A stretch of 64,000 nt of DNA from NCBI GenBank assembly GCA_965200865.1, contig CBDAVG010000002.1, positions 1,097,838-1,161,837 of the forward strand, read 5' to 3'. Position 1 is the first letter of the stretch. Each line of letters opens with the position of its first letter. Source of the DNA: an uncultured candidatus Porisulfidus sp. (GTDB taxonomy: Bacteria > Pseudomonadota > Gammaproteobacteria > Poriferisulfidales > Oxydemutatoraceae). Below, one piece after another: positions 3,947 through 6,907 of the stretch. A model generated the notes under the pieces. It was not told the origin of the DNA. It ran no database searches and was given only the letters and a program-made list of their open reading frames with translations. Position numbers and translations under genes: made by a program.

Positions 3947-6907
3947 ATGCGAGGTAGAACACATGAGCAAAGTTTTAATACTGCTTTAGGTGAAGCATTA
4001 AAGAAAATTAGTGCTTATCAAGGAAATCGTGGTGACTGCATATACGTTGAAAAAACAGGACTTTTAGCTGGTAAGCATGCAAGAAAGCGCATTGATATTT
4101 TAATTAATGACAAAGTCTCTAAACCCGTTGCAATTGAAGCCGCCTTTGACGAGAGCGGCGCAAATAAGGATGCGCAAACCCAAGTTAAGGATGCAATGCA
4201 AACAAAAGAGGGACATGAGATTTTAACTTCTATTGCGGTGATGATCTCAAGAGAATATCAAGCTATGGAGTTTGAAGACATCAAAAATAAACTCCTTAAT
4301 GGAGGTTATATATCTTATGCCCTATATCAACGATTACCGGATAGGCAGAGGATCCGACGCTGGCCTCTCTCCGGTTTCTTGGAAGGGGACATTTATGACT
4401 TATTAAATTTATCTTCTGCAGTAGCTATACCTCAAGAATGGGCAGAAAATGTGGCTACAGAAGTGGCAGATAATGTTAAGCAGGCTGCTTCTCGCCTGTC
4501 TTCGTTACCCAAAGGACGACAAAAAGAATTATCGAACTTAATCGGACAGCGAACAATATTACAAAACCTACAAACAACAGCACTGCTCTGGTTAAACGCT
4601 TGTTTTGTTCAATATCAACTTGGCAAACAAGGAGCTTCAGATATATCCTCTTTACCTCTTGCAGATGAGATCGAAACTAATAAGCTGATAGATAGTTGGA
4701 AACAAATAATTAATCGGAATTGGCGTTCCATTTTTGCGCCCGCAGTGGAAGCACTCAAAATAGTTTCTCGCTTTGACGAACAAGCAAGTAGTGAGGCTAT
4801 TGCCTTTCTGATTGAGGGAATCCGAAAAATGGATAGAGAACATCTAGGATTACATATAAATATTGGTGCAGAACTTTTTCCGAAACTTAGCCAAGACCGG
4901 AAAACAGCAGCAGCGTTTTATACACGATCTGCAACCGCCGAATTGCTGGCACGATTGACTATCCGAGAGCAAGACTTAAAAATCTCAGATTGGGCTTCGG
5001 ACGATTTCTTTAAAAAACATTTTATCGCAGATTTAGCCTGTGGAACAGGTACTCTTTTGCGATCAGGTTATCAACGCATCATGCAAATGCATATAAAGCA
5101 CACTAAGGTGAGTAATATACCAAAACAGATGCACTGTCAGGCGATGGAATCTGGTCTAATCGGCATTGATATCAGTCCTATTGCTGCACATCTTGCAACA
5201 TCCTCTTTAGCAGTTATTGGTTATGGGGAGCCTTATGGGGAAACTCGTATTGGTTGGGTAGAAGTGGGTGGCAAAAAAGGAAAAACTGGAACGATTGAAT
5301 ATCTAGGTTGCAGTGTGCTTTATGACTTACTACATGATGTAGAGGCAGGAAAATTGTCTGGAGTTAAACAAAAACAATCATCGCAGAGACATTCTATTGC
5401 GGTTAAGGATGGAAGTATTGATTGGGTATTGATGAATCCTCCTTATTCTAGAACTCGTGGTGGACAAAGTGCCTTTGATTTAACAGGATTAGATGAAACA
5501 GAGCGCAAGGAATGTCAAAAGCAATGGAGATCCCTTACTAGACGCACAAGACTTCCTACTGGTGAGTATGCTAATCTTCAAGCAGGTATGGCAGCCACAT
5601 TTTTATTTCTAGCTAGACTCAAGGTTAAATCTGGTGGGCGTATTGGTTTTGTTTTGCCCTTGACGGCTGCCTTTGCTGAGACTTGGGCTTCTACTAGAAA
5701 GATGCTCCGTATGCACTTTGAAGATCTAACAGTCATTGCCGTGAAATCAGGTGGAACTTCCGGAGCAAGTTCCTTGTCTTCGGATACAAATATAGAAGAG
5801 ATGCTACTGGTAGCTACCCGAATAAAAAGACTTTTTAATAGTAAGCCGGTACCTGTGCGTTGTGTAACTTTATACACGGCTTTCTCGCGTGTAGGCGAAG
5901 CAACTGAAATTGCCCGCGCAATTGAAAAAAGCCTAAAAGACCTTGAGAAGACACGCCCAATAGTACTTGGCAAAAAAGAAATCGGACAAGTCACACTATT
6001 TGATGGCGAACCTGAGGTACCATGGAGCTTGGTTGGTGCGACACATTCAGAATTAGCCTTAGCAGCACAAGCCTTATGCAAAGGAGAACTAAACTATTTG
6101 ATTGATAAACCTATGTCTATCAATGTAGAGATGGGAACACTTGAAACTCTTTTTGATGTTGGACCGACCCATCATCTTATTGGACATCCACAAGGAAGAG
6201 AAAAAATAGGAGCCTTTGAGCTTCATAAATTAGATAATGCCTCTAGTGCTATAGGCAGAGACCGGGCACTATGGGCAGCAGACAGTAAGACACAGAAATG
6301 CTTAATTGTACGACCAACACATAAAGGTGTCGCACATAAAGGAGCATCTAAGGAGGAACGTCGTACCATGCGAGAAAAGCAAAGTACCCTCTTTTATGCT
6401 CGCAATATGAGATGGACATCTCAAGCACTAGTGGCTGCGATGACAGAACGCCTTGTTCACGAAGGACAATCATGGACATCATTGAAACATGAAAAAGAAA
6501 GTGTGCAGAAAGTTTTTGCTCTTTGGGTAAACTCAACATTCGGTTTAGTTGTCCACTGGACGCAAGGACAGAGAACCCAGGTTGGACGCGCAAGAACTCA
6601 AATTCAAGCATTACGTAAAATCCCATGTCCTCGTTTCGATCTCTTGCCAAACGATGTTTTAGCAAAAGCAGCAAATGACTTTGATAATTTAGTGGATAGA
6701 GAACTTTTGCCAGCTTGTCAAGCACATGCAGATGATATAAGAAAAGCCATTGATGAAGCAGTTATTCATCTTTTGAACCTAGAGCCAAAAGCAATAGACT
6801 TCGTCTCTGATCTACGCAATCTGTGGTGTCGTGAGTCTTCGGTACATGGAAACAATGGAGAGGCACTTAAAAAGCTATCTGAATCCTCATATTGCTCTTC
6901 TCAGTAA
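3947..6907 (+). CDS. Large (986 aa) gamma-class N6-adenine DNA methyltransferase-like protein. Possibly a Type IIG/IIL fused restriction-modification enzyme, or an orphan defence methyltransferase with a long C-terminal target-recognition region.
   Basis: AdoMet motif I ADLACGTGTLL near aa 360 and catalytic motif IV NPPY (DWVLMNPPYSR) near aa 505, in gamma order. No adjacent HsdS/HsdR genes. N-terminal ~250 aa and C-terminal ~480 aa unassigned. Confidence 0.5.
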   Translation: MRGRTHEQSFNTALGEALKKISAYQGNRGDCIYVEKTGLLAGKHARKRIDILINDKVSKPVAIEAAFDESGANKDAQTQVKDAMQTKEGHEILTSIAVMISREYQAMEFEDIKNKLLNGGYISYALYQRLPDRQRIRRWPLSGFLEGDIYDLLNLSSAVAIPQEWAENVATEVADNVKQAASRLSSLPKGRQKELSNLIGQRTILQNLQTTALLWLNACFVQYQLGKQGASDISSLPLADEIETNKLIDSWKQIINRNWRSIFAPAVEALKIVSRFDEQASSEAIAFLIEGIRKMDREHLGLHINIGAELFPKLSQDRKTAAAFYTRSATAELLARLTIREQDLKISDWASDDFFKKHFIADLACGTGTLLRSGYQRIMQMHIKHTKVSNIPKQMHCQAMESGLIGIDISPIAAHLATSSLAVIGYGEPYGETRIGWVEVGGKKGKTGTIEYLGCSVLYDLLHDVEAGKLSGVKQKQSSQRHSIAVKDGSIDWVLMNPPYSRTRGGQSAFDLTGLDETERKECQKQWRSLTRRTRLPTGEYANLQAGMAATFLFLARLKVKSGGRIGFVLPLTAAFAETWASTRKMLRMHFEDLTVIAVKSGGTSGASSLSSDTNIEEMLLVATRIKRLFNSKPVPVRCVTLYTAFSRVGEATEIARAIEKSLKDLEKTRPIVLGKKEIGQVTLFDGEPEVPWSLVGATHSELALAAQALCKGELNYLIDKPMSINVEMGTLETLFDVGPTHHLIGHPQGREKIGAFELHKLDNASSAIGRDRALWAADSKTQKCLIVRPTHKGVAHKGASKEERRTMREKQSTLFYARNMRWTSQALVAAMTERLVHEGQSWTSLKHEKESVQKVFALWVNSTFGLVVHWTQGQRTQVGRARTQIQALRKIPCPRFDLLPNDVLAKAANDFDNLVDRELLPACQAHADDIRKAIDEAVIHLLNLEPKAIDFVSDLRNLWCRESSVHGNNGEALKKLSESSYCSSQ

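Follow-up and report, generated by a model that had tools for sequence, protein, structure and literature searches.

Restriction-modification (R-M) enzymes that consist of a single chain are the most engineerable, as one domain sets the specificity for both cutting and methylation. The described systems to which the gene treated here can be compared are the Type IIG enzymes of the BpuSI type (PDB 3s1s), the Type IIL enzymes MmeI and DrdV (PDB 5hr4, 7lo5), the PglX/BrxX methyltransferases of BREX (PDB 8c45, 8q56, 9ewz) and, at the level of domains, the Eco57I-like family (PF07669). The gene lies in a 64,000 nt stretch of contig CBDAVG010000002.1 (the window) from an uncultured candidatus Porisulfidus sp., where the listing of open reading frames (ORFs) gives a plus-strand frame of 986 amino acids (aa) with an ATG start at 3947..6907. 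A first-pass annotation, made from the letters alone, had described its architecture as Type IIG-like, and this description is now supported by fold, conserved residues and genomic autonomy. Hence we suggest that the gene probably encodes a stand-alone, single-polypeptide R-M enzyme of the Type IIG/IIL kind, and that it belongs to a large unannotated family.

The likeness to the known systems hardly reaches the level of sequence. BpuSI shows no significant sequence similarity to the protein and 9-12% identity in structural alignments. With Pfam the window protein gave N6_Mtase (E 0.0024), Eco57I (E 0.0096; 16.5 bits against the gathering score of 25.3, from a model that spans part of the catalytic domain) and MmeI_Mtase (E 0.035; 13.7 bits against a cut-off of 27), all under their gathering scores, and no other MmeI-family model was among its matches. 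The best NCBIfam match was MAD2 (E 1.8e-4), and PADLOC likewise placed mad2 first (E 2.6e-6), over the catalytic core only, along with weak matches to Type I and Type IIG methyltransferase models. Neither phmmer nor hmmsearch with a 29-sequence family profile found anything significant among the PDB sequences, the best match (E 0.8) being to motif I of BrxX. Across the 29 members the recurring Pfam matches were N6_Mtase (13/29) and Eco57I (7/29), with no others recurrent; three members of a distant subfamily pass the Eco57I gathering score, at 26.4-28.8 bits.

A search of 5.8 billion proteins returned at least 558 homologs, mostly full-length (~970-1010 aa), and when 1.84 billion cluster representatives (clusters at 50% identity) were searched exhaustively with a profile, 1,007 of them matched at E<=1e-30 and 2,353 at E<=1e-10. 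As the homologs are many and mostly full-length, the ORF is not a product of chance. Their source records are nameless or read 'hypothetical', and a literature search found no description of the family. We take it to be probably a large, previously unannotated variant of single-chain R-M enzymes, divergent in sequence.

Structural comparison gives a PD-(D/E)xK fold for the N-terminal domain, and the best matches are the nuclease domains of BpuSI and DrdV. At the level of modelled folds, endonuclease and methyltransferase domains thus appear to be combined in one 986-aa polypeptide. The nuclease site was followed in 70 full-length sequences, 24 of them from the subfamily that is 26-28% identical. 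E7, D50 (on strand 2, consensus PDILI), E64 (on strand 3), D75 and R138 are conserved in at least 93% of these. At residue 79, on the second core helix (alpha2), 92% of the sequences have R and 98% have R or K, in both subfamilies; D75 and R79, both on this helix, may complete the site. The residue at position 66 differs between groups, with S in the main subfamily, A in the clade of the window protein and E in the distant subfamily (E-x-E, which we take to be the BamHI arrangement); K occurs there in just one member, from the distant subfamily. We propose the family motif E7 ... (P)D50 ... E64-x-[S/A/E]66 ... [D/E]73-x-D75-A-x-x-R79-L-G ... R138. The earlier remark that no PD-(D/E)xK motif could be seen by eye is explained by the motif being non-canonical and without its lysine, although the domain does have the fold and a conserved acidic site. 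Where BpuSI has a lysine on the beta-strand the family has none, and R79 of the following helix is proposed to take its place. Active PD-(D/E)XK enzymes with the lysine relocated to the second core helix have been documented (Pa4535, PD-EXX-K), and the BamHI variant is among the active-site variations in a survey of this superfamily (PMC3424549). Conservation as deep as this argues for an active site that may well work.

In the central domain the order of motif I ahead of motif IV, the gamma order of the first-pass annotation, is seen in the translation as well, with ADLACGTGTLL followed by NPPY (Table 1). DLACGTGTLL (362-371) and NPPY do not vary in the family, apart from NPPF in the distant subfamily; D362, C365, G366 and G368 of motif I are 100% conserved, and the FYT element at residues 324-326 is presumably similar to the FYTP/motif X of the gamma class. 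NPPY and NPPF are also found in protein methyltransferases of the HemK/PrmC type and in some rRNA m6A/m2G methyltransferases, and since these motifs are not exclusive to DNA enzymes the protein might in principle methylate RNA or protein at nitrogen and carry accessory domains, a notion to which the weak MTS and UPF0020 matches in a few members could be added. Assignment to an RNA or protein methyltransferase family was named from the start as the outcome that would speak against a DNA enzyme; no such family was matched repeatedly by Pfam among the 29 members, and we give this explanation hardly any credence.

The remainder of the chain resembles a target-recognition domain. CamA, M.BseCI, PglX, DrdV and MmeI align over 414-569 residues, exceeding the catalytic domain of ~300 residues, and compared with BpuSI the C-terminal domain has strongly conserved loops of its own (GPTHxLIGH, NMRWTSQ and HWTQGQRTQxGR). 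Loops 740-781, 808-843 and 877-884 are conserved yet of low confidence in the structure model, which fits loops that gain order on DNA.

The behaviour of this domain in tandem arrays is what points to specificity. Loci L010 and L014 hold three copies each, L017 and L029 two each; the triple arrays (at 9908-20747 of locus L010, from OZ242302.1, and at 7033-15857 of L014, from OZ244857.1) consist of full-length members in the chromosomes of two Rhodothermales metagenome-assembled genomes (MAGs). At the DNA level the copies are 99.2-99.4% identical in L014 and 96-98.5% in L010, and their amino-acid differences cluster in three patches (A, B and C) of the C-terminal domain, within or adjoining the low-confidence loops. 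In L014, 12 of the 46 patch codons differ non-synonymously and 6 synonymously; for the remaining 922 codons the corresponding numbers are 1 and 4. Because the synonymous changes cluster along with the non-synonymous ones, it is likely that short patches were exchanged, through recombination or gene conversion, rather than altered by point mutation alone.

To describe the patches across the family we used 69 non-redundant sequences of the main subfamily and the Fisher test. In module A, D743 with R754 was found in 31 and H743 with I/L754 in 32 of the 69 (p = 8e-19); in module B, R841 with T883 in 38 and S/P/Q841 with R883 in 24 (p = 1.8e-13). The two modules are independent of each other (p = 1.0), and all four combinations are common (22, 20, 13 and 11 sequences). 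In at least 10 sequence pairs the states flip between backbones that are 96-99% identical, hence shared ancestry cannot explain the association of the residues; L006 and L007 (OZ251529.1 and OZ251457.1), for instance, differ in module B only. The three copies of L014 are A1B1, A1B2 and A2B1, those of L010 A2B1, A2B2 and A1B2. The swap of an arginine from 841 to 883 is also found in the 26%-identity subfamily, with R883 in 4/4 sequences having T841 and in 0/20 having R841. We take the patches for putative determinants of base contacts, and expect the family to have at least four recognition sequences, differing at two positions. Patch diversification, the covarying modules and the structural matches all suggest an in-chain domain that determines specificity. 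The module residues presumably resemble the covarying specificity residues of the MmeI family; compared with MmeI and DrdV, the modules described here are binary, common to several phyla and apparently swapped as short patches between tandem copies.

Further we investigated the surroundings of the gene in 78 distinct loci with 10-kb flanks and three more from exact look-ups, calling ORFs and clustering the neighbours within 6 kb. No neighbour family recurs across 80 loci; the commonest, a generic ABC ATPase, occurs at 10, and other shared neighbours reflect synteny among close relatives. No conserved small ORF was detected when the 600 bp on either side were compared by tblastx. Homologs are found between trp genes and glycosyltransferases, right after tgt and tatABC, beside CRISPR-Cas and inside an integrative and conjugative element, which is what would be expected of a gene that works without partner genes. 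As first annotated, no hsdS, hsdR or separate restriction endonuclease gene is adjacent, and the gene listing and the annotation of the neighbours agree on this.

These contexts bear on the idea that the protein serves as methyltransferase subunit in a defence system of several genes, similar to PglX of BREX, MAD2 of MADS, the DISARM enzyme or HsdM of Type I, or else the partner of the divergent EEP-family nuclease (1806-2693) and 315-aa protein (2683-3630) of the window. It draws on the full-length Foldseek alignment to PglX/BrxX (TMq about 0.40), on mad2 and MAD2 as the best database matches, and on the EEP nuclease gene lying 1.3 kb upstream on the opposite strand. The MAD2 score is, however, 19.9 bits against a cut-off of 720, with no conserved partner genes. 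BREX genes (brxA, brxB, brxC, pglZ and brxL) are absent from the window, from four annotated contexts and from the recurrent neighbour clusters over the 80 loci, and the family differs from PglX/BrxX in its N-terminal domain, which has the fold of a nuclease and a conserved acidic site. Type I HsdM has ~500 aa and adjacent hsdS and hsdR, whereas this protein is 986 aa long, contains nuclease and recognition domains itself and has no such neighbours, and no BREX, MADS or hsdS/hsdR genes were present in any context inspected. A DISARM arrangement is ruled out by the neighbour analysis. The suggestion of a larger system with the divergent nuclease and lipoprotein pair did not survive either, as the closest homologs (P0002 and P0003, 66-70% identity) lack both neighbours. 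The best N-terminal matches, to BpuSI and DrdV, speak against it too. The multi-gene explanation is largely refuted by context, and we consider it very improbable.

P0002 (70% identical) itself lies in a defence island (L082 1-15662), between a CRISPR-Cas locus with a large Csx12/HNH effector, Cas1, Cas2 and Cas4 and a gamma-class methyltransferase-like protein of 1,018 aa that is unrelated. The ~1,000-aa methyltransferase adjoining P0002 was considered as a paralog of our query, and is similar to it around motif I only; it is not a member of the family.

The distribution was drawn from the best 80 genomic matches, and habitats from lineage names and bin labels. Almost all of these matches are MAGs of lineages typical for sponge microbiomes, among them Poribacteria, Ca. 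Poriferihabitans, Ca. Porifericomitaceae, Latescibacterota, Rhodothermales, Dehalococcoidia, Longimicrobiales, Bryobacterales, Arenicellales, Azotimanducaceae, Acidimicrobiia, Binatia, Caldilineaceae and a Nitrosopumilaceae archaeon. A search with the MAG labels backed the sponge origin in part, for the SB06xx bins only, which appear among sponge-associated Entoporibacteria (PMC7883664); for these 80 matches we infer a link of habitat to sponges. The family is spread over more than ten phyla, in bacteria as well as archaea. Horizontal transfer is implied by the identities of 45-50% that members from different phyla share, and the two copies in the Nitrosopumilaceae MAG (L028 and L034, OZ220738.1; 37-44% identity to the query) imply transfer between domains, the family being otherwise bacterial. 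Split, frameshifted or interrupted copies were found at eight loci (L033, L035, L040, L041, L043, L044, L049 and L059), with two gene halves ~2.6 kb apart in L049, which indicates that genes of this family are frequently inactivated.

The window copy has its methyltransferase motifs I and IV intact and is of state A1/B2-like (H743, I754, Q841, S842, R883). In its nuclease domain it alone carries D73N (AAT) and R79Q (CAA), along with L80V, G81K, W25Q and P49I; its closest relatives retain D73 and R79. Deviations from the consensus of at least 80% amount to 6/26 conserved positions in the nuclease domain against 12/157 elsewhere (p = 0.026). Given these unique changes, this copy may have a nuclease of reduced or no activity, which would leave a protective methylase on a mobile element.

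The same observations can be carried further, to an orphan enzyme that methylates only, with a nuclease fold that is dead in the whole family and serves DNA binding, dimerisation or regulation, the methylation being for element protection or epigenetic regulation. Protective methylases are common on mobile islands, and the window copy is cargo of such an island; to this may be added its D73N and R79Q, the enrichment of N-terminal deviations and the lack of the canonical (D/E)xK lysine family-wide. Conservation of E7, D50, E64, D75 and R79 at 92% or more between 26%-identity subfamilies is, on the other hand, difficult to account for unless these residues act in catalysis or metal binding, and active PD-(D/E)xK enzymes with a missing or migrated lysine exist (PMC3424549). 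Moreover, frequent pseudogenisation and diversification of the patches are more in keeping with a toxic enzyme caught in an arms race than with a housekeeping methylase. We regard an orphan methylase as unlikely for the family, though to be taken seriously.

It should be noted that several points weigh against a single-chain R-M enzyme as well. Even a profile brings out no significant sequence similarity to any characterised enzyme; the canonical lysine is missing throughout the family, and R79 as its replacement is a proposal based on conservation and helix position; and two putative catalytic residues are lost in the window copy. The C-terminal domain is conserved unusually strongly for a recognition domain, its key loops are of low confidence in the model, and the patches might mark something else than base recognition. 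Methylation and cleavage are both predicted activities.

If the protein is a single-chain R-M enzyme, we envisage that its C-terminal domain recognises a short stretch of DNA by way of three loops, which are patches A, B and C. The gamma-class domain in the middle would methylate an adenine of the recognition site at N6, with S-adenosylmethionine (AdoMet) as the methyl donor, marking the host DNA as self, and the N-terminal domain would cleave unmethylated foreign DNA close to that site. The metal site of the nuclease would be formed by E7, D50, E64 and D75, with R79 from the second core helix replacing the beta-strand lysine. Specificity would come from two independent binary modules, D743/R754 or H743/I754 in the one and arginine at 841 or 883 in the other, that are swapped by short-patch recombination, and tandem duplication would supply several module combinations per genome. 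The window copy, as cargo on a conjugative island by tRNA-Ser, could act mainly as an element-protecting methylase if its nuclease is indeed weakened or dead.

Table 1. Coordinates of the gene, its predicted domains and the genes of the surrounding island, in window positions.
Feature	Position	Strand	Residues	Remarks
Shine-Dalgarno GAGGAG	3933..3938	+		8 nt 5' of ATG; direct sequence reading
Complete ORF, single chain	3947..6907	+	986 aa	putative nuclease, methyltransferase and recognition domain
PD-(D/E)xK restriction-endonuclease-fold domain	3947..4426	+	1-160	N-terminal
All-helical connector	4427..4858	+	161-304	model secondary structure; spanned by full-length BpuSI and PglX alignments
Gamma-class N6-adenine DNA methyltransferase domain	4859..5746	+	~305-600	predicted
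Motif I, ADLACGTGTLL	5027..5059	+	361-371	AdoMet-binding loop
Motif IV, NPPY	5435..5446	+	497-500	catalytic; NPPF in distant subfamily
Target-recognition-like domain	5747..6904	+	601-986	C-terminal
Variable patch A	6164..6214	+	740-756	D743+R754 vs H743+I/L754; window copy H743/I754, state A1
Variable patch B	6458..6514	+	838-856	R841(+A842) vs S/P/Q841(+T842); window copy Q841/S842, B2-like
Variable patch C	6572..6601	+	876-885	T883 with R841, R883 with non-arginine 841; window copy R883
RadC	967-1767	+		island gene
PAPS-reductase-like gene	7959-9146	-	395 aa	island gene
DUF5131 (phage Gp37/Gp68 family)	9150-9863	-		island gene
RPA-like initiator	9887-11140			island gene
TraU	11605-12642			island gene
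ParA	14409-15245			island gene
tRNA-Ser(tga)	15306-15395	-		island boundary; chromosomal pdxA, surA, lptD beyond

The gene lies in a segment of low GC content (~0.39, against ~0.46 beyond it) at window 1-15395, bounded by tRNA-Ser(tga). ParA, TraU and an iteron-linked initiator, among other genes, mark it as an integrated conjugative or plasmid-like island; no att repeat of the tRNA-Ser was found inside the window, and the island extends past its left edge. By its NusA the host is placed as a marine gammaproteobacterium, with ~59% identity to the best named relatives. At 11150-11441, directly beside the gene for the RPA-like replication initiator, a 23-bp unit (ACCTTTTCTGTACCCTCCCTGCG) is repeated in tandem (12.7 copies), which looks like an iteron-type origin, and the 157-aa ORF that overlaps the repeats (11128-11601) is probably spurious. 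At 190-445 and 914-1174 an upstream region of ~260 bp is duplicated (75-94% identity, ~726 bp spacing); it holds a GGGGAAATTTCCCC palindrome and a ribosome-binding site and precedes the plus-strand ORF 442-861 and the RadC gene, which suggests two cassettes with the same regulatory region. Just 3' of the methyltransferase gene is the pair of PAPS-reductase-like and DUF5131 genes, which is not conserved beside other family members and could be a DNA-modification or anti-restriction pair of the island.

A scan for sigma-70 promoters around the methyltransferase gene found sites no commoner than in shuffled sequence. Terminator-like hairpins are threefold enriched at window 3400-7700 (10 against 3.2 +/- 1.8 in shuffled sequence), and several of them fall at 6.9-7.6 kb, 3' of the gene.

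Elsewhere in the window, a second low-GC patch (~30-34 kb) holds, among short ORFs, a gene for an NgoFVII-like PLD-family restriction endonuclease (31543-32460; PLDc_2 5.9e-12, RE_NgoFVII 6.7e-8). A cognate methyltransferase was not identified, and the gene may be left over from another R-M system. Three tandem minus-strand ORFs of 684, 635 and 618 aa at 36109-42201 are diverged paralogs (26-39% identity) without any Pfam match, the 684-aa ORF having an internal repeat; secreted effectors are one possibility. An insertion sequence (IS) transposase (DUF772 and DDE_Tnp_1_6; 54345-56075, plus strand) sits at a local reversal of GC and AT skew.

Taken jointly, the observations allow a wider reading that we put forward tentatively and ourselves hold to be rather doubtful. 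It would see in the family an unrecognised superfamily of single-chain R-M enzymes, a gene pool shared by the bacteria and archaea of sponge and other marine-invertebrate holobionts. The lysine-less nuclease site would be completed by a helix arginine, and the binary specificity code, of two switches with one an arginine moving between loops, would be rewritten by short-patch recombination and stacked in tandem arrays. Nuclease-decayed copies on conjugative elements, the window copy being one, would then be methylase passports into hosts with the active enzyme.

If true, a readable two-module code would give rules by which recognition sequences could be predicted and redesigned, and these rules could be checked against existing long-read kinetic data of the carrier genomes. 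The family would add ~1,000 unannotated clusters to the inventory of defence genes and exemplify a lysine-less PD-(D/E)xK site; the ~980-aa 'hypothetical protein' calls of sponge-type MAGs are probably R-M enzymes. Further, its near-exclusive occurrence in sponge-type lineages would make it a marker for gene flow and phage pressure within a host-associated community.

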